Part shown: piece by piece, positions 4,283 through 51,544 of the stretch
Layout of the letters: every line of letters starts with the position of its first letter
Numbering within the stretch: the first letter of the stretch is position 1
Source: Bacilli bacterium
Lineage (GTDB): Bacteria > Bacillota_I > Bacilli_A > ML615J-28 > CAG-698
Assembly: GCA_041675865.1 (NCBI GenBank)
Contig: JBAYTA010000001.1
Location: 6,332-70,331, forward strand
DNA length: 64,000 bases
Direction: 5' to 3'
Notes under the pieces: generated by a model
What the model was told of the DNA's origin: nothing
What the model saw: the letters and a program-made list of their open reading frames with translations, nothing else
Database searches by the model: none
Position numbers and translations under genes: made by a program

Positions 4283-4322
4283 TTCGACAAAACCGTGTAA
4301 AAATTCAAGATACGATGTCGAA
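4283..4322. promoter_or_regulatory. Spo0A-binding (0A) boxes in the spo0A promoter region
   Basis: A TTCGACA at 4283-4289 (reverse orientation) and a TGTCGAA at 4316-4322 lie next to a TTTGACA -35-like element. Both sit 120-150 bp upstream of the spo0A ATG, which fits the known autoregulation of spo0A. Confidence 0.45.
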
Positions 4323-4438: not shown

Positions 4439-5254
4439 ATGAATAGTTTAAAGGTTATCATTGCTGATGACGGTAAAGAACTAGTCCAAGCAATGCAGGA
4501 CTTCTTTAGCGATAAAGAAGAGATTCAAGTTGTTGGTGTACACAATGATGGTGTTACTTTACTTAACACACTTCGTGTTACACAAGTCGATTTACTTATA
4601 CTGGATATTTTCATGCCAAACTTAGATGGGGTAAAAGTGTTACAAGAATTGAATTCCAGAAGAGACCGCTACAAAGTACCAAAAACTATCATTGCAGTAA
4701 CAGCTTTTTCAAATGAAAAAATTATGAATAGTGTTGCTGAATTAGGTGCAGATTACTTTGTTGTAAAACCTATTAACTTTACACATTTATTTGAAACTAT
4801 TAAAGATTTACACGAAAAGAAAAACGAAAAGAACCAAACCAAAACTCAGAGTGCATACAGTTTTAATAATAAAACTGATCTTGACACAGAAATTACAACA
4901 TTACTACATGAGATAGGAGTTCCAGCACACATAAGAGGATACCTTTATATCCGCGAAGCCATTACAATGGTTTATCATAATCTTGAAATTCTGGGCAATA
5001 TTACAAAGATATTATACCCAGAGGTAGCTAGAAAATTTAATACAACATCATCTAGAGTTGAAAGGGCAATTCGTCATGCAATAGAAGTTGCCTGGGTTAG
5101 AGGAAATATCGATGCAATAAGCGATATATTTAGTTATACTATAAGTTATCATAAATCTAAGCCAACAAACTCAGAATTTATAGCAATGATTGCTGATCGT
5201 TTACGTCTATTACATAAGCGAGAAAAACGAGAAGTGTTAACTAGAGTTGTATAA
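4439..5254 (+). CDS. spo0A: sporulation master response regulator Spo0A
   Basis: It has a receiver domain with the phospho-acceptor Asp in '[13 protein letters not shown]'. The C-terminal Spo0A-specific DNA-binding domain reads '[34 protein letters not shown]'. A GGAGGAG RBS precedes the ATG. Confidence 0.95.
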
Positions 5255-7865: not shown

Positions 7866-8095
7866 TCTATTTTAATAAATCGTTAAGGTAAGAATAGTAA
7901 TTAATTTGTTTTAAGTTAAAGCGAAAAGTGGTTGGTGAGAGCACTTACTTAAATATTAATGAAGGACACTTGCTTAGATTCCACCTAGGACGTAAATCTT
8001 GCGTTAAAGATTAAAGTGCATCATTTTGATGAAGTAAGGTGGTACCACGGATTAACAAATTCGTCCTTAAGATTTTTTCTTAAGGACTTTTATTT
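7866..8095 (+). promoter_or_regulatory. T-box riboswitch leader (tRNA-sensing transcription attenuator) of hisS-aspS
   Basis: The conserved T-box sequence 'AAGGTGGTACCACGG' lies at 8036-8050. It is followed by the terminator hairpin GTCCTTAAG..CTTAAGGAC plus TTTT at 8063-8092. A candidate specifier region 'GAAGGACAC' is at 7961-7969. Confidence 0.8.
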
Positions 8096-8118: not shown

Positions 8119-9381
8119 ATGTATCAAAAAGTAAAGGGAACTTTGGATTTTTATGATGAGAGTGCGATTAAGTATCGTTATTTAGAATCTGTTATATCTA
8201 AGGTTATTAAAAATTATGGTTATACTGAAGTTATTACACCAATTTTTGAAAATACAGAAATTTTTGTTAGAACATCTGGTGAAGAATCAGATATTGTAAC
8301 TAAAGAAATGTATACATTTTTAGATAAAGGCAAAAGAAGTATTACTTTAAGACCAGAAGGAACAGCTGGGGTTGTTAGAAGCTTTTTAGAGAATAAAATG
8401 TATGCAAATACAACTCTTACAAAACTGTATTATTTTGGTCCAATGTTTCGCTATGAAAGACCACAAACAGGTAGATACCGTCAATTTACACAATTTGGTG
8501 TAGAAGCTTTTGGTGCATCTTCACCTTTACTTGATGCAGATGTAATTATTAGCGCTTATCAAATTTTTAAATCTTTAGGAATCGATAACTTAAAATTAAA
8601 AATTAATACAATTGGTGATTTCACTTCTAGAAATAATTATGTTGATGTTTTACAAGATTATTTTAGGAAAGACATTGATAAACTATGTAGCGATTGTAAT
8701 AATAGATTAGAAAAAAATCCTTTAAGGATTTTAGATTGTAAAATTGATAGTGATAATCCAATAATTAAATCGGCTCCAAAAATTTCAGATTCCTTAACAC
8801 AAGAAGCAAAAGATTATTTTAAGGAAGTTTTAAAAGCTCTTGACTATAATAATATCAATTATTTTGTAGATGAAAATCTAGTTAGAGGACTTGATTATTA
8901 TACAGACACTGTCTTTGAATTTATAATTGAAAGTGATGATAATCTAAATGGTCTTGCAATTTGTGGTGGTGGAAAATACTCTGATATGGTTAAATCATTT
9001 GGAGGTCCAGATATTCCAGGAATTGGATATGCTTTTGGAATAGAAAGAGTTATCTCTATCATGGATCAAAAAGGTCTTTTTCCTAATTTAGATAAAGCTG
9101 CAGATGTTGTGTTAATTGCATTAGATGAAGAATCAAAATTATATAGTTTAAATCTTGCAAATAAATTACGAATGAATGGTTATTATGCAGATATAGATTA
9201 TTTTAATACTACTATGAAGCAACAATTTAAATTGAGTGATCGTTTGAATGCAAAATTCATTATAATAATTGGTGAAGAAGAGTTAGCAAATAATTCTCTA
9301 ACTATTAAAAACACTAAAACAAAAGAACAAATTACAATAAAAGAATATATGTTATTAGAATATTTAAAGGAGAAGATCTAA
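8119..9381 (+). CDS. hisS: histidine--tRNA ligase
   Basis: Class II aaRS motifs 'RPEGTAGVVR' and 'YYFGPMFRYERPQTGRYRQF', plus the HisRS anticodon-binding C-terminus. Confidence 0.95.
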   Translation: MYQKVKGTLDFYDESAIKYRYLESVISKVIKNYGYTEVITPIFENTEIFVRTSGEESDIVTKEMYTFLDKGKRSITLRPEGTAGVVRSFLENKMYANTTLTKLYYFGPMFRYERPQTGRYRQFTQFGVEAFGASSPLLDADVIISAYQIFKSLGIDNLKLKINTIGDFTSRNNYVDVLQDYFRKDIDKLCSDCNNRLEKNPLRILDCKIDSDNPIIKSAPKISDSLTQEAKDYFKEVLKALDYNNINYFVDENLVRGLDYYTDTVFEFIIESDDNLNGLAICGGGKYSDMVKSFGGPDIPGIGYAFGIERVISIMDQKGLFPNLDKAADVVLIALDEESKLYSLNLANKLRMNGYYADIDYFNTTMKQQFKLSDRLNAKFIIIIGEEELANNSLTIKNTKTKEQITIKEYMLLEYLKEKI

Positions 9382-30719: not shown

Positions 30720-31214
30720 TTGCTTAAAAATAATTTATTTAAAAACAGATTATTTGTATATTTACTAAGTTTATATTTGGTAGGTATAATATTTGGTATA
30801 ATTTTTGTGAAAACAAATGATTATGTTTTTAATAATCAAACTAAAAATTATATGAAAATATTTTTATCGAATTATTGGTATTTATTTGTAATTTGGTTAT
30901 TTGGGTTTTCTTTCTTAGGCTATATAGTAACCTCAAGCATTGTATTTTTTAGAGCACTTGTTTTTGGAATATTAGTAAAATTATTAATTGTGAGTAACTT
31001 TGGTCTATTTATAATATTATTACTTTTAGAAATATTAATATTTTTTCCTACGCTAATATTTTTAGCATATATATCTTTAAGTTTAAGTAAGGAAAATTTT
31101 AAAATATATATTGGTGGATTTTCAAATACATTTAATCTCTCAAAATATATTAATTTAATGTTAGTTATAACTGTTATTTGTGCTCTATACTCATTATTGA
31201 TTTATATAAATTAG
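30720..31214 (+). CDS. spoIIM: stage II sporulation protein M-like membrane protein
   Basis: It has SpoIIM-like topology and a central motif pattern. It sits next to xerD, as in B. subtilis. The start is TTG. Confidence 0.55.
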   Translation: MLKNNLFKNRLFVYLLSLYLVGIIFGIIFVKTNDYVFNNQTKNYMKIFLSNYWYLFVIWLFGFSFLGYIVTSSIVFFRALVFGILVKLLIVSNFGLFIILLLLEILIFFPTLIFLAYISLSLSKENFKIYIGGFSNTFNLSKYINLMLVITVICALYSLLIYIN

Positions 31215-31226
31215 TTGGTGGTTTAA

Positions 31227-32129
31227 ATGGATAAGTATTTAAAAGAATATATATATTACATTAAAGGTGAATTAAATCTTGGAACCAATACTGTAGAGTC
31301 TTATACGAAAGATATTGAACAGTATATTGATTTTCTTAAAACATATAGACACAAAAACAATCCAGAGGATATAGAAATTCCAGATATAAGAAACTATATG
31401 AGCAGTTTAAAAAGAAAGTTTTTAGCTGCTGGAACGCAAGCAAGAAAACTAACTGCGATAAAGAGTTTTCATAGATTTTTGTTTTTAGAAAAATATACTA
31501 CTAGAAATGTTTCTAAAACTATTTCTAGTCCAAAACAAGAAGACAAGCTTCCGATAGTTTTATCGATAGAAGAAGTTAAGATTTTACTTGATTCTTTAAA
31601 AAGTGATACGCCTCTTAATTTAAGAAATAAAGCTATGATTGAAGTTGCTTATGCATGTGGTTTAAGAGAAAGCGAGTTAATAGGATTAAAAATAAGTGAT
31701 TTGCACTTAAACCAAGGTTTAATAAATATATATGGTAAAGGTAACAAAGAAAGAATTGTTCCAATTAATAAAAAGGCAATTGCTACAATCAATGATTATT
31801 TAGAAAATTCTAGACCTATTTTACGTTCTAATCAAAGCAAAAATATTCTCTTTTTAACAAAATCCGGAAACGCTGTTCCAAGAACATATTTTTATAATAT
31901 TGTAAGAGATGCAGCTATTAATGCTGGATTAAGAAAAAAAGTAACTCCGCATATGCTAAGACATTCATATGCTTCACATTTACTTGAAAACGGATTAGAT
32001 TTACGTTTAATTCAAGAATTACTAGGGCATGAAGATATTAGTACCACTGAAATATATACTCATATAAATAATACAAAACTAAAAGATGTTTATATGTCAG
32101 CTCATCCAAGAGCTAAGAAAGGACATTAA
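31227..32129 (+). CDS. xerD: site-specific tyrosine recombinase XerD
   Basis: An N-terminal SAM-like domain and the catalytic R..HxxR..Y residues ('HMLRHSYASHLLENG..EIYTH'). It is about 300 aa. Confidence 0.85.
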   Translation: MDKYLKEYIYYIKGELNLGTNTVESYTKDIEQYIDFLKTYRHKNNPEDIEIPDIRNYMSSLKRKFLAAGTQARKLTAIKSFHRFLFLEKYTTRNVSKTISSPKQEDKLPIVLSIEEVKILLDSLKSDTPLNLRNKAMIEVAYACGLRESELIGLKISDLHLNQGLINIYGKGNKERIVPINKKAIATINDYLENSRPILRSNQSKNILFLTKSGNAVPRTYFYNIVRDAAINAGLRKKVTPHMLRHSYASHLLENGLDLRLIQELLGHEDISTTEIYTHINNTKLKDVYMSAHPRAKKGH

Positions 32130-36912: not shown

Positions 36913-37494
36913 TTGAAAAAATATTATAAAACTAGAAAAAGATTTTTTATCGTAGTAATTTGCTTTATTACTTTAATATCAGGATATAGTATATTAAAAG
37001 GTATAATAAATAAAAATACCAATTCAGATCAATTAGCTGAATTTGGTTTTAATAATATAACAATAGAAGAACTAGTTCAAGGACTTGATTCTAATGATAT
37101 AAATAAACCAAATTTAAGTGCATCAATTACAGGGACTCATTTACTTCTGGCAAATGCAGATAAATCTGTTAAGATCCCTTTAAGTAATGATAAATTCTAT
37201 GTGTCATTTGCACCCTATATAAATAATACCCATACTTGTAGTAATCATAATTTAATTACTTGCACAAGTGAGCTTAAAAATGAATCTTTCCATGTTCTTA
37301 TATTAGATGAAACTGGTAAGGCTATTATAGATAAATATGTGCAAAGTATGGATAATGGTTTTATAGGCATGTGGATGCCAAAAAACATAACAGGCAAATT
37401 AATTGTCTCTTATAATGGATTAAAAGCAAGTACAAATATCACTACATTTAATGATAGTAATACTTGCATCACTACACCATTAAAATTAAATTAA
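36913..37494 (+). CDS. small secreted/lipid-anchored Cys-containing protein (hypothetical)
   Basis: A TTG start, an N-terminal signal anchor, and four Cys residues in 'HTCSNHNLITCTSE'. Confidence 0.5.
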   Translation: MKKYYKTRKRFFIVVICFITLISGYSILKGIINKNTNSDQLAEFGFNNITIEELVQGLDSNDINKPNLSASITGTHLLLANADKSVKIPLSNDKFYVSFAPYINNTHTCSNHNLITCTSELKNESFHVLILDETGKAIIDKYVQSMDNGFIGMWMPKNITGKLIVSYNGLKASTNITTFNDSNTCITTPLKLN

Positions 37495-37504
37495 ATATAA
37501 ATAT

Positions 37505-37545
37505 ACAGCCCTTATATTCTAAGAATAGGGGCTGTATTTCATCTC
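37505..37545 (+). terminator. rho-independent terminator
   Basis: An ACAGCCC..GGGGCTGT stem followed by T-rich sequence. Confidence 0.6.
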
Positions 37546-37703
37546 TACTGGCTTTATTTAGGATAATATAATGTTTACTCTAACTACTAACTGAATCGAT
37601 TAGGGATTAAATATGAAATGAATGCTTGTTTTTGATTTAAGAAATTTGTATAACAACAAATATAGTCAAAAAATGCAAATGAATACGTTTATTTGAAGAT
37701 AAT

Positions 37704-37784
37704 TGTCGAAAGTAAATATGAAATATATGTCGAAATATTAGGTGAATATCAATTTTTAGAACATAAATTATATAAAATTCGACA
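37704..37784. promoter_or_regulatory. cluster of three perfect Spo0A-box heptamers
   Basis: TGTCGAA at 37704-37710 and 37728-37734, and TTCGACA at 37778-37784. The region has no ORFs. Confidence 0.4.
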
Positions 37785-38702
37785 TTCATCACTTTATAAA
37801 CTGCGCTTTGGATCTTTGTTTTAGCAATAATCATTATTATAAGGTTGGTCTAGTGTAATTTAAAATATCAAGGACTAAATTTCGCGTACAATCATTTTAA
37901 ATATGTATTTCTATTAACTAATCATTTAATATTAAAATTGATTATAGAGGAAATTTAAGGGCTTTAGTTAATTTACTCTTTTAATGTTAGAATATATATC
38001 ATTTATTAGATGAATCCACAAATCACTATTATGCATGGCCCAATAAAAAAATAGATCGTATAAAAAAATAAGCTTCTGTGAGAGGCTTATTTAAATTTGA
38101 GAGGGTATAAATTAATAGATACTAGAAGCTAATATGAGGATTTTAATTTAATATATAATATAATTGCTTTATACTCATTGTTATCAACAGTTATACAGTT
38201 TTACACATTGTTTTGATATATTAGCCATAGTGCTATATATATTTAACTTAACATAATATACATTATAGGAAGTTGTTTTACTATTGAATTATTCATTTAA
38301 TTTAACGGTTTAACCAATACTTTTATGGTTCTATTCTTTTTCCAAGACATCTTGTAATAACCTTATGATGACTTATTAAGCATATAATAGATAATCTTCT
38401 CTCATGAGCAGTTATTGTTCAGCTTTTATAAGTTTAAATTATAAAACAAAATTATATATCTGAAGTATATTTTTATATTAATGTACTTTCATAATAACTT
38501 ATGCATGTATACCCACAACTAATAATATAAATGTCTCTTGGAGCGGATACATACCAGATTTATATGGCTAAGAAAATTGTAGAATAATGTAATATAATCC
38601 TGATATATGATAACATAAAATGCTTTAATTTGAAACAACATTTTTATAAAATTTAATTCGCAAATCTAAGTTCAAATTTATTATTAAATTATTAATATAA
38701 AT

Positions 38703-38729
38703 AGTGCCTTTAGTATAAACTAAGGCACT
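38703..38729 (-). terminator. hairpin downstream of the ABC exporter operon
   Basis: An AGTGCCTT..AAGGCACT stem about 90 nt past the stop of the last ABC gene. Confidence 0.45.
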
Positions 38730-38816
38730 CTAATAAAGTATTATTGGTAAATACCCATCCTATTAAAGATAATTGTCTCCTAGGAAGGGTATTTTTTTGT
38801 TTAGTAACTTTAATTA

Positions 38817-40595
38817 TTAATTTAGTTGATAATTTTCCGATTGGGTTTTAAAAAGCTTATAATACAAAGAATTTTTATCTTTCATTAGATTTTTATGTGT
38901 ATCATAAGAAACTACTTTGCCTCCATCTAAGACTAATATATAATCACAGAATACTGATGATGACATACGGTGAGAAATATAGATTGCTGTTTTATCAAGC
39001 ACTAGTTCATTAAAGTGTTCATAGATTTCTGCTTCTGCTATTGGATCCAATGCAGATGTTGGTTCATCTAAAATAACTAAGCTTGAGTTTTTATATAGAG
39101 CTCTTGCAATAGCAATTTTTTGTCCTTGACCACCAGATAGTTCTATACCATCTTCATCAAATGATTTATTTAATCTTGTATTAATACCTTTAGGTAATTC
39201 AGTAATTTTTTCAGTTAAGCCAACTTGATCAATAATTTTATTTAGTTGCTCTTTTGCAGTTTGTTCTTCTCCTGTAATGTTTTTTATAATCGAATACGCA
39301 AACAATTTATAATCTTGAAACACAATTGAAATTGCATCTAAATAAGATTTATAATTATAATCATAGATACTTTTATCATTGATTAAAATCTCTCCAGAAT
39401 CTGGCTCATAGAATCTACATAGTAATTTAATTATAGTTGTCTTACCTGCACCGTTTAATCCAACAATCGAGATTTTTTCTCCCTTATTTATTTTGAATGA
39501 TACATTATCAAGGATTAAGTTATTTGATTTTGGGTAAGTAAAACTAACATTTTTAAATTCAATTTTTTCTATTTCCTTTAGTTCTAAATCACTAGGTACT
39601 TCTAATGCATTTGGTAATTGCATAAACTCCACAAATGGATTTAAATAATCTAATAATTGCATCATATCAATTACATTATTAAATAAACCATCAAATGTTT
39701 TAGAAAAGTTGATTGCGGAATTTGCAAACATTGTGAAATCACCAATGGTTATTTTCTTTGATGTTTCTACAGTTGAAGCTAATAATCCAACATATAAATA
39801 AACTAACCCAGTTTGAAGCGCTGTTAATAACGACTGCAATCCTTGTACAATACCCATATTCCTAAAGAATTTTTTGAAGTTAGATACATTTACTTTGTTG
39901 TAATGTTGAACTCTATCTAAGATTAAAGGACTCATATTATATAAACGCATATCTTTAGATAATCTTTGATCATTCGTTAAGTTAAAATAATAGTTGTATT
40001 TTCGATTAATTGGTATAATACTTTGAAAGAAATTGACTTGGTATTTCATAAATTGACTATTAATCACTAAAGTTATAATAACTCCGATTAGTAATATTGT
40101 TATTAAAATATAACCCAGAGTTAGCATAATAGCAATTAATCCTAACAATGTAATAAAGTTTGTTACAAGCCCTGATAATCCATTAACCATTCTTTGGAGT
40201 GCATTTTGATTATTTATCGCAAATGCTGCTCTTTCTTTTAAGTCTAAATAATATGGATCTTCTAGATGCTTATATTCTACTTTCATAATTTTAATAGACA
40301 TTTCTTCCATAACTTTATAAGATACTTTTCTTTGTTTTACTTCAAGCAATCTCTTATATATTTTGTTAATTAAATTAATAATCAAATTAAAGCCAACAAT
40401 AGCTATACCGTAATAAAAAGCTGTCATAAGATCCTTATTTATTATTAGTTCATCAATCAAAAATTTAGGTAAAATTACATTTCCTATTACTTGAATTGAA
40501 GAAAATAACGATCCAAATATTGTTAAAAATATAAATCCTGGAGAAACCTTAAACATTAATTTCAATAGATATTTAATTTTCTTAAATGCTTTCAT
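38817..40595 (-). CDS. ABC exporter subunit (fused TMD-NBD), heterodimer partner 2
   Basis: Six transmembrane helices, Walker A 'GLNGAGKTT', signature 'LSGGQGQKIAIARAL', and Walker B 'VILDEPTSALD'. Confidence 0.9.
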   Translation of the reverse strand: MKAFKKIKYLLKLMFKVSPGFIFLTIFGSLFSSIQVIGNVILPKFLIDELIINKDLMTAFYYGIAIVGFNLIINLINKIYKRLLEVKQRKVSYKVMEEMSIKIMKVEYKHLEDPYYLDLKERAAFAINNQNALQRMVNGLSGLVTNFITLLGLIAIMLTLGYILITILLIGVIITLVINSQFMKYQVNFFQSIIPINRKYNYYFNLTNDQRLSKDMRLYNMSPLILDRVQHYNKVNVSNFKKFFRNMGIVQGLQSLLTALQTGLVYLYVGLLASTVETSKKITIGDFTMFANSAINFSKTFDGLFNNVIDMMQLLDYLNPFVEFMQLPNALEVPSDLELKEIEKIEFKNVSFTYPKSNNLILDNVSFKINKGEKISIVGLNGAGKTTIIKLLCRFYEPDSGEILINDKSIYDYNYKSYLDAISIVFQDYKLFAYSIIKNITGEEQTAKEQLNKIIDQVGLTEKITELPKGINTRLNKSFDEDGIELSGGQGQKIAIARALYKNSSLVILDEPTSALDPIAEAEIYEHFNELVLDKTAIYISHRMSSSVFCDYILVLDGGKVVSYDTHKNLMKDKNSLYYKLFKTQSENYQLN

Positions 40596-42372
40596 GTTCT
40601 TCTCCTTGTTGATAGTACTTACCTTGAACTACAAACATATTATAGTATTCACCTTTTAATTGCATTAGTTCATCATGAGTACCATATTCTTCTAATACTG
40701 AATTATTAAATAAGGCAATTTTATCGCAAAATTTTGTGCTAGCAAGTCTATGTGATATGAAAATTGTTGTATGATCTTTAACTAGATTATTAAAGTTTTC
40801 ATATATTTCTGCTTCTGCTAGAGCATCTAATGCTGCAGTTGGTTCATCTAAAACTACCATTTTACCATTTTTATATAATGCTCTTGCTATAGCTAGTTTT
40901 TGATTTTCCCCACCACTAAAAATAATTCCTGACTCATCAATATTCTTAAGCATAATTGTATCTAGACCATGGTCAAGATTTCTAACTTTATCTCCTAAAC
41001 CTACTAAATCTAAACACTTCCAAATTCTTTCTTCGTCATTTGATAAACCTAGAGTAATATTTTCTCTAACTGAGAAAGCAAGAATATTTATATCTTGAAA
41101 CACAGGTGCAAATAGGCTTTGGTATGTCTCTTTATCATAATCTAATGCATTAATTCCGTTTACTAAAATAACTCCTTCAGTGGGTTTAAATAATCTAAGT
41201 AATAATTTCACAATCGTTGTCTTACCGGCACCATTTATACCAACGATTGCTAGTTTTTCGCCTTTTTCAATTTTTAAGTTTAAATTTTTTATAATCCATT
41301 TTTCTGTTTTAGGATATTTGAAACTTACATTCTTAAACTCAATTTCAAGTGTTTCACTTTCAATGTTACTAATTCCTTGAGATTTTTCATTAAAATCTGT
41401 ATCCATAAAGACAAAATAGTCATTTAAATACTGACCCTTGCTTATTAAGAAAATAATATCTTCTACTAAAACTTTTAATAATGTAGTTAGAGCTAAAGCA
41501 GCAAGTAAATAGAAGGAAAACGATGCAATATCCATTCCATCAATTACCTTTGTAATTAGAAAATAGAATAATAAACCATCACTAATTAGTACAAATAAAG
41601 CATCAATCAAAGCAAGGAAATATTCTTTGTTTTTTATTTTGCGAAAAACAGATAAATACGATTTTATTTCAAAATCATAGCTTTCAGTAATACTTTTTTC
41701 AAAATTATATAAACGAATATCTTTTCCAAAACTGAAATCTTGAGCTGTACTTTCAAAGTATCTTAATCTCCTATTAGCATTTGCAAGATTTTTCTTTTGT
41801 TTAAAGTTTATATTTTTAATAATAAATGCACTAAAAACACTAAATATTAATGATAAGATGATAGAACCAACGACTAAGATGTTTAAGGTTATTAAAAAAT
41901 AAATGTAAATCAAAGATAGCATTATCTTAGAAGCAAAAACAAAGAGTCTTCTTATCACCTCTTCAAAATCATTACCTCCTATAACATCATAAGCATCACT
42001 ATTTTCATTTAAAAAGTTTGGATCCTCTGTATAATGATAATCTAAGCGGTTTGTTTTATCAAAGATATTTGTGAGTAGATCAATTCTTACTTTCATTACT
42101 TTCACATAAACATTGGTATGTATATATCTTTCAAAAAATGAAAAAACACCAATTACAATAGTTATAACACCTACTATTAATAATAATTCTTCTACAATGA
42201 TAGATGCATCTTGTAAGCCTTCAATAATTAATCTTGGCATGAAGATGGCAAGTATGGGTACAGTTGTTGCTAGAATTGTATAAATTAGAAATAGTAAAAA
42301 TAAACTTTTTTCAGATTTCCAAATTTCATTTACTGATCTTTTCATTGTTTTTAAAAAAGAATATTTTTTCAT
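40582..42372 (-). CDS. ABC exporter subunit (fused TMD-NBD), heterodimer partner 1
   Basis: Walker A 'GINGAGKTT', signature 'FSGGENQKLAIARAL', and Walker B 'VVLDEPTAALD'. It overlaps both neighbours. Confidence 0.9.
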   Translation of the reverse strand: MKKYSFLKTMKRSVNEIWKSEKSLFLLFLIYTILATTVPILAIFMPRLIIEGLQDASIIVEELLLIVGVITIVIGVFSFFERYIHTNVYVKVMKVRIDLLTNIFDKTNRLDYHYTEDPNFLNENSDAYDVIGGNDFEEVIRRLFVFASKIMLSLIYIYFLITLNILVVGSIILSLIFSVFSAFIIKNINFKQKKNLANANRRLRYFESTAQDFSFGKDIRLYNFEKSITESYDFEIKSYLSVFRKIKNKEYFLALIDALFVLISDGLLFYFLITKVIDGMDIASFSFYLLAALALTTLLKVLVEDIIFLISKGQYLNDYFVFMDTDFNEKSQGISNIESETLEIEFKNVSFKYPKTEKWIIKNLNLKIEKGEKLAIVGINGAGKTTIVKLLLRLFKPTEGVILVNGINALDYDKETYQSLFAPVFQDINILAFSVRENITLGLSNDEERIWKCLDLVGLGDKVRNLDHGLDTIMLKNIDESGIIFSGGENQKLAIARALYKNGKMVVLDEPTAALDALAEAEIYENFNNLVKDHTTIFISHRLASTKFCDKIALFNNSVLEEYGTHDELMQLKGEYYNMFVVQGKYYQQGEEHESI

Positions 42373-46209: not shown

Positions 46210-48690
46210 TTAGCTAAAATCGTTGTTATTTCTAACAATTATTAAATTTAATGGTGTTTTTACTTTTTTAGAATTAATCTTTTTACCTGTTGCACTAGTA
46301 GCACTTCTTATATCAGAGAAATCTAATTTTTCATATCCTTCTTCACCATCAATATATGAATCTAGATCTAGATTAGCATTTTTACGATGAATTATACTTG
46401 ATGAAATTATATTGTTGTTCACAGTTTTCATCATTTGCATATATTGTTTACCAACATTGTTTTTTCTTCCCTTGATAATTTCATCTATTCTAAATCTCTT
46501 AACATTACAGTTAGCAGTTAAGACTACTATTAGATCTTTTTCATCAATATAATGTCCACCAACTACAACATCTTTTGGTCTACTCTTAAGTTCTATTGCT
46601 TTTACTCCAACTGCAGAAATTGCCATTTCTGGTATTTCTTCAGAACTATATCTGTTCATATAACCATCAGCAGTAATAACAACTACTTCAGGATTTACTT
46701 CACTTGTAATATCTACACTTACTACTTCATCATCATCTCTTAATTTAGTAGCTCTAAGTGCTCTTGAATATCTTGTCGCATACAGATGTTTCACATGTGT
46801 CTTTTTAATAAAACCATTTTTTGTAGTAAACAGTATATATTTATTTGCTTCAAAATCATCAATTGGAACTGAGAATATTACTTTTTCAACTGATTCAATA
46901 TTAACTAAAGTTGATATATGGTAACCCAAATCTTTATGTTTCACATCAGGTATTTTTGAAACTGGTAAATATACATAATTTCCACGATCTGTAAAGAATA
47001 ACATTACATCTAATGTAGTAACTTCATAAGTAGCAACTATAAAGTCATTATCTTTAAGTTTAGTTTCATCACCATTTGCATAAGCCTTTGGTGTAAGTCT
47101 TTTAATATAGCCATCATTAGTTAAAATGATTACCATATCTTCTTTCGCAATCAACTCTTTAACTTCAACTTTTACTTCTTCAATTTCATGTTCAATTACT
47201 GTTTTTCTTGGAACATTAATTTTCTTATATGTATTTTTAAGTTCTAGTTTTATTTGTTTAACTAATTCATCTTCACTAGAAAGGATAGCAACTAGCCTAT
47301 CAATAAGTTCATTAAGTTCTTCTTTTTCTTTTTGTAAAGCAAAAATATCGGTATTTGTAAGACGATATAATTGCAACATTACAATAGCTTCAGCTTGAGC
47401 ATAAGAGAATTCATAATTACTTACTAAATTTTCTATTGCATCTTTTTTGTTGTTAGAATTCCTAATTGTTTTAATAACAGCATCTAATATAGATACCATT
47501 GAAATTAATCCGTCGACTATATGTAATCTTTTCCTTGCGGCATTTAATTCATAATTACTACGGTTAATTACTACATCTTTTTGATGAGTTATATAGTAAT
47601 CTAAATACTCAATTAATCCTAGTTGTAGGGGACGTTTATTAGCAATTGCAACTATATTAAAGTTATAGTTTGATTGTAATTCAGTTGCTTGGAAGAAGAA
47701 ATTTTTAATATCTTCAGGATTCACATCTTTTCGAATATCAACAACAATTCTTAAACCTTCTCTATCTGTTTCATCTCTAATATCTATAATTCCATCAATG
47801 TTTTTCTTTACATAAACTTCACTCATTTTTTTAACTAAATTAGCTTTGTTTACATCATAAGGAATCTCAGAAATGATAAGCTTATACATCTTAGACTCTT
47901 CTGTTATTTCTACCTTCGCTTTTACAATTATCTTTCCCTTACCAGTTTTATATGCATTAATAATTCCGTCTAACCCTTGGATAATCCCTCCCGTTGGAAA
48001 ATCAGGACCCGGAACAATTTTCATCAAATCTTTTAAACTTGCATCAGGATGATCTAATTTATAAATTGTAGCTTCGATAATCTCACCAACATTATGAGGA
48101 GGAATTTCAGTTGCATAACCAGCAGATATACCTGAAGCTCCATTTACAAAGAGATTCGGATATTTAGCAGGTAATACAGTAGGTTCATATTCTTCATCAT
48201 CAAAATTAGGAATAAAACCAACAGTTTTTTTATTAATATCTTCTAATAAATATTCAGAATACATTGATAATCTTGCTTCTGTATAACGCATTGCCGCAGC
48301 AGGATCACCGTCAATACTTCCATTATTACCATGCATTTCAATTAAAGGTAGTCTTGTTTTAAAATCTTGAGACATTCTCACCATAGCATCATAAACAGAT
48401 GAGTCACCATGAGGATGATATTTACCTATAACTTCACCAACAATTCTTGCAGATTTCTTAAATGGTTTATTTGAAAACATTCCAAGTTTAAACATTGCAT
48501 AAAGAATTCTTCGTTGTACAGGTTTTAAACCGTCTCTAACGTCAGGAATTGCTCTATCTTGAATTATATATTTAGAATATCTACCAAACCTATCACCAAA
48601 TATATCTTCAAGATTTTCTTGGATTATTTTCTCATTTACGAATTCTTCAATTTTTTTAGTTGTTTTACTCTTTTTAGATCTATTCATCAA
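46210..48690 (-). CDS. parC: DNA topoisomerase IV subunit A
   Basis: The type IIA A-subunit catalytic region contains a ParC-like '[22 protein letters not shown]'. It is paired with parE and sits next to plsY, as in Bacillus. Confidence 0.8.
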
Positions 48691-50623
48691 TTGATACCTC
48701 TTCTAAAGTGAAATTATCTTCGAATTCAAATGAAACATTATTATCAATCCATTCTCTTCTTGGACCTACTTCATCCCCCATTAGTACACTTACACGATTA
48801 TCTGCATCAGAGAAATCTTCAATCTTTACTTGAATAAGTGTTCTAGTTTCTGGATTCATTGTTGTATCCCAAAGTTGATCTGCATTCATCTCACCCAAAC
48901 CTTTAAATCTTTGGATTAAAACATTTTTATTAGATTCAACTTTTGCTTTTAATTCTTCGTCAGTCCATGCATATTCAATTTTATTTTTTATTGTTAATTT
49001 ATATAATGGTGCTTGCGCAATATATACATAACCTTGTTCAATTAATTCTCGCATATATCTAAAGAAGAATGTTAGTAATAATACTTGAATATGTGCTCCA
49101 TCAGTATCAGCATCGGTCATAATGATAATTTTGCTATAGTTTGATTTATCTATATTAAATTCTCTACCAAACCCTGCACCAATAGAATAAATCATTGACA
49201 TTATTTCTTCATTTTTAAGTAAATCTTCTGTCTTGATTCTTTCTACATTTAAGACCTTACCTCTAAGAGGTAGGATAGCTTGGAAGCGACGATCTCTTCC
49301 TTGTTTAGCACTACCACCAGCTGAATCACCTTCGACGATAAATAATTCATTATTCTTACGATTTTTATCTTGAACTGGTGCTAACTTCCCAGCCATATTT
49401 GCAGTCTTACCAACTTTTTGTTTAATCATTCTAACTTCTTCACGCGCTTTTCTAGCAGCTTCGCGTGCTTTTGCAGCTCGGATTGCATTAGAGATTAAGA
49501 TATTTGCAATTTCTCCCTTTTCATTTAAGAAGAATTTCATTTGTTCTAGAACAATAGTTTCAACTGCAAGTTTTGCTTCAGTAGTACCTAATTTATTTTT
49601 TGTTTGTCCTTCAAATTGAAGTATATCTTCGCCTACTCTAATTGATAAAACAGCAGTTAAACCTTCTCTAACATCATTACCTTCTAAATTAGGATCCTTA
49701 TCTTTTAATAAACCCTTCATTCTTGCATAATCATTAAATGCTCTAGTAATTGCTGCTCTAAAGCCTGTTTCATGTGTTCCACCATCTCTAGTACGAATAT
49801 TATTAACAAAGGATAATACATTCTCAGAGAATGATTTTTTAGAATATTGAAGAGCACATTCAACTTGAATATTTGAGTTTGTTCCTTCTAAGAAAACGAC
49901 TTCATGAATAGCTTGTTTACCTTTATTTATTTCCTCCACAAATTCAGAAATACCATTTTCAAACATAAAGGTATCACTTGCACCAGTTCTTTCATCAACT
50001 AAATCAATTTTTAAACCTCTGATTAAAAATGCAGATTCTCTTAGTCTTTGTACACATTGTTTATAATCAATAATGGTTGTTGAAAAAATAAGTGGGTCTG
50101 GTTTAAAATGAACTGTAGTTCCAGTTTTCTTTGATTCACCAATAAATTTATGCTTATGGATCTTTGCTCCACCATTCTCAAATTTTTGGTAATAAATCTT
50201 TCCTTCTCTTGCAATCTTAAGTTCAACAAGTTCACTTAATGCATTTACAACACTCGAACCAACACCATGTAGGCCTCCAGACACTTTGTATGCACCACCA
50301 GCTTCAAATTTTCCACCAGCATGTAAAGTACAAAATACTACTTGCGGAGTAGGTACTCCAGTCTTATGCATACCAATAGGAATTCCTCTACCATTATCTA
50401 TAACCTCAACAGAATTCCCTTTATGAATGATAACTTTTACATAGTTTGCATATCCGGTCAAAACTTCGTCAATTGCATTATCTACAATTTCCCAAATTAA
50501 ATGATGTAGTCCTCTTGAATCCGTACTTCCAACATACATACCAGGACGTTTTCGAATAGCTTCTAACCCTTGTAAGACTTGAATTTTGGATTCATCATAT
50601 TTTTCAATTTTCTTCTTGGCCAT
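48680..50623 (-). CDS. parE: DNA topoisomerase IV subunit B
   Basis: A GHKL ATPase with TOPRIM 'EGDSAGG'. I chose the ATG at 50623 giving '[22 protein letters not shown]'; the GTG at 50632 is an alternative. Confidence 0.8.
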
Positions 50624-50878
50624 ATTTAACACAAACCTTTCATTAGTATAATTTATTATAGCATATATTTAATAAAAAGTAAACAACTATTATCATTATT
50701 TTATTATGCTCATATGCAATAAATGAGTATGTTTATTGTAGAGAATTATGTCGAATTTGAAAATGTTGACTATATTAAAAAGAGATCTTTTTATAGATTA
50801 TTGTCATTTTAAATTAAATATTTGCTTGTTTTAATATCCCATTTAGAGTATAATAGATATCATATAAAGGTGTATTAA

Positions 50879-51544
50879 ATGGTTATTCAAATAGGATTAT
50901 TAATTTTGTCATATTTATTAGGGTCAATTCCGACAGGTTTTCTACTTGGAAAAATGAAGGGTATTGACATAAGAGAACATGGAAGTAAAAATATTGGTGC
51001 TACCAATACAGGCAGAGTACTTGGAAAAAGATATGCAATTATTGCATATATCTTCGATATGCTCAAAGGGGCAGTTTTAGTATTTTTATTTAGATTTGAA
51101 ATTATCTCTTTAGAATATTGCCTTCTTGGTCAACCACTACTTTACGGAATGGCTGCAACATTAGGTCATACCTCTTCTATTTACTTAAAGTTTAAGGGTG
51201 GTAAAGCTGTTGCAACTTCTAGCGGTGTTATCTTTGGTTATGTTCCCTGGCTATTATTAGTTGGTTTAATAATCTTCTTTACAGTAATGTTTATTACAAA
51301 ATATGTATCTGTTGGATCGATTGTTGGAGCATCAAGTGTTTTATTAATTTGTGTAGTTTTAACCATAGTCGGTAAGGATCCGTTTTACGAAGGCTTTACA
51401 TACGATTGGTACTTCCTACTATTTATTACAATAATATTTATTATTCTAATAATTAGACATAAAGGAAACATCTCAAGGTTAAGGCAAAAAACGGAATCAA
51501 AAATTAATTTTAAAAGAAAAAAAGAATCTAGTAATGAAAGCTAG
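50879..51544 (+). CDS. plsY: glycerol-3-phosphate acyltransferase PlsY
   Basis: 'GSKNIGATN' and 'HTSSIYLKFKGGKAVATS' motifs. It is divergent from parE. Confidence 0.9.
   Translation: MVIQIGLLILSYLLGSIPTGFLLGKMKGIDIREHGSKNIGATNTGRVLGKRYAIIAYIFDMLKGAVLVFLFRFEIISLEYCLLGQPLLYGMAATLGHTSSIYLKFKGGKAVATSSGVIFGYVPWLLLVGLIIFFTVMFITKYVSVGSIVGASSVLLICVVLTIVGKDPFYEGFTYDWYFLLFITIIFIILIIRHKGNISRLRQKTESKINFKRKKESSNES

Follow-up and report, generated by a model that had tools for sequence, protein, structure and literature searches.

A conserved module carrying Spo0A-box motifs lies beside dif in the replication terminus of an uncultured Bacilli lineage

The window, the whole stretch of 64,000 nucleotides analysed here, contains a 1322-bp gap (37495-38816) that sits between convergent genes, with a CueP-like lipoprotein on its left and an ABC transporter pair on its right. 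Genes are oriented mostly on the plus strand before the gap and mostly on the minus strand after it. GC skew is positive up to 36 kb (+0.14 to +0.21, with a weaker stretch of +0.01 to +0.08 at 20-28 kb) and negative beyond 40 kb (-0.15 to -0.24). The description of the tract as gene-less in the first-pass annotation holds: the gap contains short ORFs only, none conserved as a protein, and gene callers place no gene in it in two near-identical contigs. That annotation overlooked what the tract is, namely the replication terminus and dif locus; the terminus is marked by dif together with the flip in skew and gene orientation, and it is because of this terminus that the tract is without genes. 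Coordinates of all features are collected in Table 1.

Table 1. Features of the dif gap, of the spo0A and parE-parC loci and of their neighbours, in window coordinates
Feature	Position	Strand	Evidence or remark
Two 0A boxes upstream of spo0A	4283-4322		Internal reference; boxes at 4283 (-) and 4316 (+)
spo0A	4439-5254		Pfam Spo0A_C, 2.7e-42
xerD	31227-32129	+	Name from source annotation; 6 kb from dif
CueP-like lipoprotein, left of gap	36913-37494	+	
Degenerate -10, TTTAAT, where sister species have TGGTATAAT	37606-37611	-	Inferred
Module M1, ~90 bp	37657-37744	+	nhmmer, five-species profile, E 1e-15 to 1e-18 for orthologous copies
0A box 1 (TGTCGAA)	37704-37710	+	Exact-match search
0A box 2 (TGTCGAA), most conserved box	37728-37734	+	Exact-match search
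0A box 3 (TTCGACA on the plus strand), this species only	37778-37784	-	Exact-match search
Module X, conserved ~95-120-nt imperfect palindrome with TAYAATC core	37847-37966	.	nhmmer, E 1e-16 to 1e-25, five species
12-bp hairpin between A-run and T-run, terminator-like	38066-38092	.	Centroid structure; counterpart in species B
dif site, ACTTCCTATAATGTATATTATGTTAAGT	38246-38273	-	At GC-skew sign change; 28/28 in species B, D, E
ABC transporter pair, right of gap	38817-42372	-	
parC	46210-48690	-	Pfam, topoisomerase IV
parE	48680-50632	-	Pfam, topoisomerase IV
Predicted parE-parC promoter: TTTACT, 17 nt, TGCTATAAT	50655-50683	-	Best promoter score in region
M1-like paralogous copy, parE/plsY intergenic	50704-50764	+	nhmmer, E 1.2e-3
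plsY, divergent from parE-parC	50879-51544	+	

The dif site, composed of two 11-bp arms flanking a 6-bp centre (ACTTCCTATAA-TGTATA-TTATGTTAAGT), shares 24/28 positions with the B. subtilis dif 28-mer, which occurs in Kono et al. 2011 (PMC3025954). It is a single-copy element, with one match at ≤3 mismatches in 64 kb, and its 28 positions are all identical in species A (the window species), B, D and E. Together with its position at the skew switch and the proximity of xerD, these properties liken it to the Firmicutes dif/XerCD site. Conservation extends over ~55 nt of left flank (38190-38245), more than a bare Xer site needs. Judged by eye on the alignments, this flank includes a DnaA-box-like sequence, TTTTACACA, at 38199-38207 (+), ~40 bp left of dif, which reads TTATACACA in B, TTTTACACA in D and ATTTACACA in E. 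One strain of species E (L039) carries a T-to-C substitution inside the dif central region (gap position 995, the dif centre), leaving 27/28 matches. The xerD gene follows a SpoIIM-like gene (30720-31214, +) and precedes phosphopentomutase, a block that also borders the gap in species D and E.

A cluster of perfect Spo0A boxes lies in the left part of the gap, with dif 470 bp to its right and the individual boxes 470-540 bp from dif. The heptamers initially reported, TGTCGAA at 37704 and 37728 in direct orientation and at 37778 inverted, were all recovered by exact-match search. Across the window, 8 perfect boxes occur on both strands against 2.94 ± 1.71 expected from dinucleotide shuffles, and 0/100 shuffles reached 8. 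The first-pass figure of ~10 chance boxes per 64 kb was thus roughly threefold too high, the shuffles giving ~3, and the claim that a triple within 81 bp lies far above chance proves conservative, the cluster being rarer than claimed. Under a first-order Markov model fitted to the composition of the gap itself, 0.047 boxes would be expected in 1322 bp, where 3 are present; 2 Mb of simulated window-like sequence yields one pair and 0 triples within 81 bp; and the chance probability of the cluster is ~1e-5. Six of the 8 perfect boxes lie outside ORFs of at least 120 aa, two in the spo0A promoter, three in the dif gap and one in the parE/plsY intergenic region. For the C. difficile 630 genome, of ~4.3 Mb, a total of 102 boxes would correspond to a density of ~1.5 per 64 kb. 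This number of perfect boxes is the published count for that AT-rich genome (PMC3485338).

The gene for the presumptive ligand of these boxes is in the same window. The earlier statement that the spo0A promoter shows the same boxes is borne out, with both heptamers located 117-156 bp upstream of the ATG at 4439. The C-terminal domain of this Spo0A aligns to the DNA-bound B. subtilis structure 1LQ1 over 117 residues (E 8.5e-56) and shares a 15-residue identical stretch with it; the DNA-recognition region is essentially unchanged, which makes TGTCGAA very likely the cognate motif of this organism's Spo0A. TGTCGAA has been shown experimentally to be a Spo0A motif in C. difficile, and the same source describes the 0A-box consensus with its predictive value and the contacts of Spo0A with bases G2, C4 and G5 of the box (PMC3485338). 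The closest named relatives of this Spo0A are MAGs labelled Acholeplasmataceae, and the host lineage is uncultured, ~27% GC and spore-forming.

Syntenic gaps were retrieved via the neighbouring proteins, yielding four further species and three near-identical contigs of species A. Flanking proteins are 56-77% identical between the window and the other four species: B (L007/L008; CueP 56%, ABC transporter 77%), C (L009, a partial contig), D (L035; ABC transporter 68%) and E (L038/L039; ABC transporter 69%). Complete gaps measure 1.15-1.33 kb and contain no called gene in any species, C being partial. The comparison covers these five species plus one paralogue described below, B and C being 82% identical in this region. 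A search of genome contigs with the CueP-like neighbour returned distant, non-syntenic matches only, and all 19 of the 19 matches in a search of metagenome contigs with ATGAATANGNTTATTTGAAGA are by chance, none with a box downstream. Two sets of homologues were discarded as gap sources: the CueP homologues P0001, P0004, P0007 and P0021 have no record or lie in unrelated copper operons, and the ABC-transporter orthologues P0039 and P0041 are non-syntenic and have no gap.

Between distant pairs only a few blocks of the gap are alignable: the flanking terminators, dif with its left flank, and two modules that we term M1 and X. M1 contains, in order, an inverted repeat, GTTTATTTGAAGA (37687-37699), box 1, 17 nt and box 2, the boxes lying 24 bp apart. 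Its inverted repeat pairs ATAGTCA (37662-37668) with TGAATAC (37680-37686), forming 7-bp arms across an 11-bp spacer, with the consensus ATATTCA-N11-TGAATAT across species. The GTTTATTTGAAGA core is invariant in the five-species alignment, and TTTATTTG, likewise invariant, and the inverted repeat are as strongly conserved as the box. M1 is found 430-760 bp from dif in all four species in which both are seen, while the flanking genes turn over.

The two boxes of M1 differ in how they are kept. Box 2 retains TGTCGA in 5/5 species. Box 1 matches TGTCGAA in full in A and B, reads TGTCGAT in C, is lost in D (TGTAAAT, with TGACGAA 5 nt upstream) and is replaced in E by a shifted TGTCGCA positioned 15 bp from TGTCGAT. 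Every species nonetheless keeps two sites with G2, C4 and G5 within ~60 bp (TGTCGAA, TGTCGAT, TGTCGCA or TGACGAA), their position and spacing varying, and retention of the contact bases while positions drift is the pattern expected for selected binding sites. By our own count in the same gaps, sites with ≤1 mismatch are ~50 times rarer outside M1 than in M1. These comparisons support the view that boxes 1 and 2 are non-chance and are under purifying selection within a conserved module. Contigs L001 and L002, near-identical to the window, share box 3, and its position reads ATTGACA in species B and ACTGACA in species C; it is not conserved. Of the three-box unit originally proposed, boxes 1 and 2 therefore stand as part of a conserved module and box 3 drops out, leaving a unit of two boxes plus the inverted repeat. 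All boxes are invariant among the near-identical contigs covering them. The sole polymorphism near the boxes in the window species is a G/A difference at 37741 (versus L001), six bases after box 2.

The five-species M1 profile finds one further significant match in all DNA searched, located on the plus strand in the intergenic region between parE and plsY, 13 kb from the gap copy. Lying ~100 bp upstream of the predicted parE promoter, this paralogue holds a T-rich core and, at 50749-50755, a perfect 0A box. Its inverted repeat, CTCAT (50709-50713) with ATGAG (50723-50727), has changed on both arms from TTCAT/ATGAA. With a paralogue placed in a real promoter region, a Spo0A-responsive regulatory element is the best reading of the module.

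The extended -10 element TGnTATAAT occurs a single time per gap in B, C and D, in each as a minus-strand TGGTATAAT that precedes the M1 anchor on its left by 40-64 nt; its counterpart at the parE copy is TGCTATAAT, also on the minus strand and at a distance of 72 nt from the anchor there, again to the left. With a background of 0.009 per 60-nt single-strand window, the occurrence of TGnTATAAT beside M1 in 3/5 independent instances is non-random (chance roughly 1e-5 by our own estimate). Assuming a start site 7 nt past the -10, the box centre falls at -98 in B, -98 in C, -99 in D, -104 at parE and -90 in E; species D is without ~24 bp between repeat and promoter, which places box 2 at about -100 there. 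Counting against a leftward promoter, the TTTAAT of the window species is without the key A at position 2, species E has TATAGT without TG, and a position of -100 leaves a box at a long distance from RNA polymerase. Matches to the sigma-70 consensus in the gap (23% GC) are no commoner than in shuffles, for which reason promoter elements were sought where their position is conserved; no convincing sigma-H match was found in the gap by eye.

A product of such transcription has been sought in several forms. The DNA covered in the leftward direction is not conserved between lineages, running ~100 nt to the cueP terminator in B and C and through module X in D and E. In a six-frame comparison of all gaps, conservation is confined to the nucleotide level: several frames are similar simultaneously and none holds a conserved ORF. 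Neither of the ORFs lying over the boxes (43 aa and 65 aa) is conserved as a small protein, and a 5-codon ATG...TGA in M1 lacks a ribosome-binding site and, in species E, is read through. Rfam covariance models return nothing at gathering score in the gap (best E-value 0.98, far below gathering), and the segment 37790-38100 folds no better than shuffles (z = +0.84), apart from the 12-bp hairpin. This hairpin has its better T-run on the minus strand and would suggest the terminator of a leftward transcript from the dif side, for which no promoter was identified. A promoter within M1, with box 1 serving as the -35 (TCGACA, 16-18 nt, CATATT), was discarded as a model of general validity, A and C having a G at -10 position 2. 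Of the Spo0A-controlled promoter put forward in the first-pass annotation, then, a Spo0A-responsive element is retained in view of box conservation, the Spo0A recognition region and the paralogue, and the sRNA, peptide or RNA structure to go with it is not found in conserved form. As to the proposed transcript in the ORF-free tract, the sole core promoter tied non-randomly to the module would fire leftward (-), away from this tract and in the direction of the terminator that belongs to the convergent gene upstream.

Module X, the second conserved block, matches its own reverse complement (E 2e-4 to 8e-4) and is located at 971-1092 in L008, 1118-1238 in L009, 10674-10791 in L035 and 10528-10646 in L038. 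It lies right of M1 in A, B and C and 22 nt left of M1 in D and E. RNAalifold gives no consensus structure for X, whose hairpin is strong only in species C. A tandem duplication behind the swapped order of M1 and X was rejected in that no significant degenerate second copy was detected. Also set aside were an integrated element between two dif sites (no second dif-like site above chance) and a plasmid or phage origin of the region (no similarity). Inspected by eye, none of the sigma-H, sigma-E/F/G/K, CodY, ArgR/AhrC, CIRCE, Fur-type or RTP-Ter motifs fits across species.

On balance we favour, with about even confidence, a reading in which M1 truly responds to Spo0A and acts as the upstream module of a leftward promoter, the gap copy having a non-coding output and the same cassette serving parE-parC. 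Boxes 1 and 2 would be Spo0A~P sites forming the distal part of a compact cis-regulatory module. Followed along the minus strand, this module presents a pair of 0A boxes, next a core rich in T/A, and finally an inverted repeat of 7-9 bp whose spacer measures 9-11 bp, the repeat being probably bound by a second, dimeric factor. The module would stand upstream of a sigma-A-type extended -10 promoter directed leftward, placing the 0A box ~100 bp upstream of the start, and the cassette would also precede parE-parC (topoisomerase IV), 13 kb away. At the gap copy, only a short non-coding transcript is predicted, ending at the bidirectional terminator of the convergent upstream gene. The core -10 appears to have decayed in the window species, where a third, inverted 0A box has apparently arisen 50 bp further upstream; given this combination of loss and gain, output there is probably weak or more strictly dependent on Spo0A.

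The degree of conservation outside the boxes bears on whether Spo0A is involved at all. M1 could be the operator of another protein that recognises the inverted repeat and/or TTTATTTGAAGA, with TGTCGA part of that site or incidental. Conservation of ATATTCA-N11-TGAATAT and of TTTATTTG equals or exceeds that of the boxes, the parE copy keeps its repeat through changes on both arms (TTCAT/ATGAA to CTCAT/ATGAG), and box 1 is lost in D, all of which speak for such a protein. We nevertheless consider this unlikely, as it leaves unexplained why a rare CG-containing heptamer appears 2-3 times per species with the Spo0A contact bases kept and its position shifting, and why six of the eight perfect boxes are intergenic, those of the spo0A promoter among them.

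Transcription could instead run rightward (+), as the first-pass annotation implies, from a promoter ~55-60 bp downstream of box 2 that is activated or repressed by boxes 1 and 2 and drives a transcript through X towards the hairpin and dif, box 3 overlapping its -10. We rank this below the leftward promoter and regard it as rather unlikely. A CATAnT-type hexamer does follow box 2 by 53-60 nt (TGACATATT in B, TGACATACT in C, TGACATTAT in E and CATAAT in D), and X and the hairpin come after it in A, B and C. The window species, however, has CATTCA at this place, without TG and overlapped by box 3; the alignment of the segment is ambiguous, the D hexamer matching the upstream GAACATAA in A equally well; X is on the other side of M1 in D and E; the better T-run of the hairpin belongs to the minus strand; and no structural signal is seen in the region (z = +0.84).

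The proximity of M1 to dif raises a candidate role at the level of the chromosome, independent of transcription, in which Spo0A~P bound beside dif, possibly with a palindrome-binding factor, acts on the terminus at the onset of sporulation, candidate processes being Xer recombination, decatenation and sister-terminus cohesion. Although the flanking genes turn over, M1 stays 430-760 bp from an absolutely conserved dif in four species; the DNA that would be transcribed is not conserved; the window species combines the best boxes with the worst core promoters; a sister copy lies at the topo IV genes; and Spo0A is known to act away from promoters, both at replication origins and on the DNA of phages phi29/Nf. 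How termini cohere in sporulation is moreover an open problem (PMC7515245). The distance to dif is not fixed, however, and an intact TGnTATAAT, as found in B, C, D and at parE, is a sign of ordinary promoter function, and we judge such a role improbable. The occurrence of one Spo0A-box module at both dif and parE-parC nonetheless opens a possible link between sporulation and the terminus. Spo0A~P might directly couple sporulation entry to terminus processing by tuning topo IV and occupying or transcribing the dif-side DNA, thereby delaying decatenation or dimer resolution and yielding sister-terminus cohesion, a scenario that we regard as very improbable. The mechanism of sister-terminus cohesion in the axial filament is unknown (Willis, Errington and Wu 2020, PMC7515245); models for the Spo0A-dependent behaviour of sister termini in early B. 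subtilis sporulation comprise catenation, Xer/dif dimers and protein bridging, none tested (PMC7515245).

A chance cluster, or the remains of a lost gene's promoter, decaying and now functionless, would suit the missing target gene, the degenerate core promoters of the window species and the young box 3, and is extremely improbable given the ~1e-5 chance probability and the conservation of M1 where the rest of the gap is unalignable.

Returning to M1 as a Spo0A-responsive promoter module, the arrangement resembles the multi-box Spo0A promoters of B. subtilis (spoIIG, spoIIA, spoIIE, abrB, spo0A) and C. difficile (spo0A, sigH) in having several TGTCGAA cores within ~100 bp, A/T flanks and a conserved Spo0A. 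Its distal box, predicted near -100, recalls site 1 of B. subtilis spoIIG, a distal high-affinity box near -100. Unlike these promoters, M1 is followed on neither strand by a protein-coding or known RNA gene, its inverted repeat is foreign to known Spo0A promoters, and it is located between convergent genes, in a terminus/dif gap. As a cluster of Spo0A boxes making up an operator, M1 would belong to a known kind of element; unusual are the missing target gene, the conservation, the position beside dif and the topo IV paralogue.

Box clusters within replication or segregation DNA that serve no adjacent gene have a precedent in the non-promoter Spo0A sites of B. subtilis oriC and of phages phi29/Nf. 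Those sites are at origins or phage promoters, whereas M1 is at a terminus and has a core promoter associated with it in sister species; to our knowledge, nothing comparable to M1 has been described at a terminus. The Spo0A sites on the phi29/Nf genomes are noted in PMC2731898. The dif site is a neighbour of the box cluster, and the 0A boxes themselves have no similarity to Xer arms. XDS sites reportedly resemble the XerD arm of dif. Described in PMC12322038, which cites Karaboja et al. 2021, as XerD-binding SMC-unloading sites of the B. subtilis terminus, they are, like M1, conserved non-coding protein-binding sites near dif, binding to M1 being a prediction. M1 differs from them in that XerD-arm matches are not enriched in the window: 77 XerD-arm/XDS-like half-sites were counted against 88.5 expected, none of them in M1 or X.

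Should M1 be a genuine Spo0A target, it would be an orphan, a conserved operator-plus-promoter cassette without a gene that has long been kept in fast-evolving terminus DNA and duplicated at the topo IV operon. It offers sequence-level leads to Spo0A at sites other than the classical sporulation promoters and to how sporulating cells handle the terminus, for which cohesion, decatenation and Xer/dif resolution are the models in B. subtilis. For annotation, the locus illustrates that a tract marked by eye as gene-less may turn out to be nothing more than the dif/terminus locus. As a plausible regulatory site in an uncultured Bacilli lineage, M1 is of modest practical impact for now.

Two further observations concern the wider neighbourhood. 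In two relatives that are more distant (L037 and L040-L042), the ArsR-ABC-ABC block lies away from any terminus-like gap, and in L040/L041 spo0A is only 4 kb from this block. Such placement in L037 and L040-L042 implies that the terminus neighbourhood has been rearranged between lineages, the modules of the dif gap persisting where synteny holds. Elsewhere in the window, a T-box leader (Rfam RF00230, 97.8 bits) is located at 7874-8071 (+), upstream of the ORF at 8119-9381.
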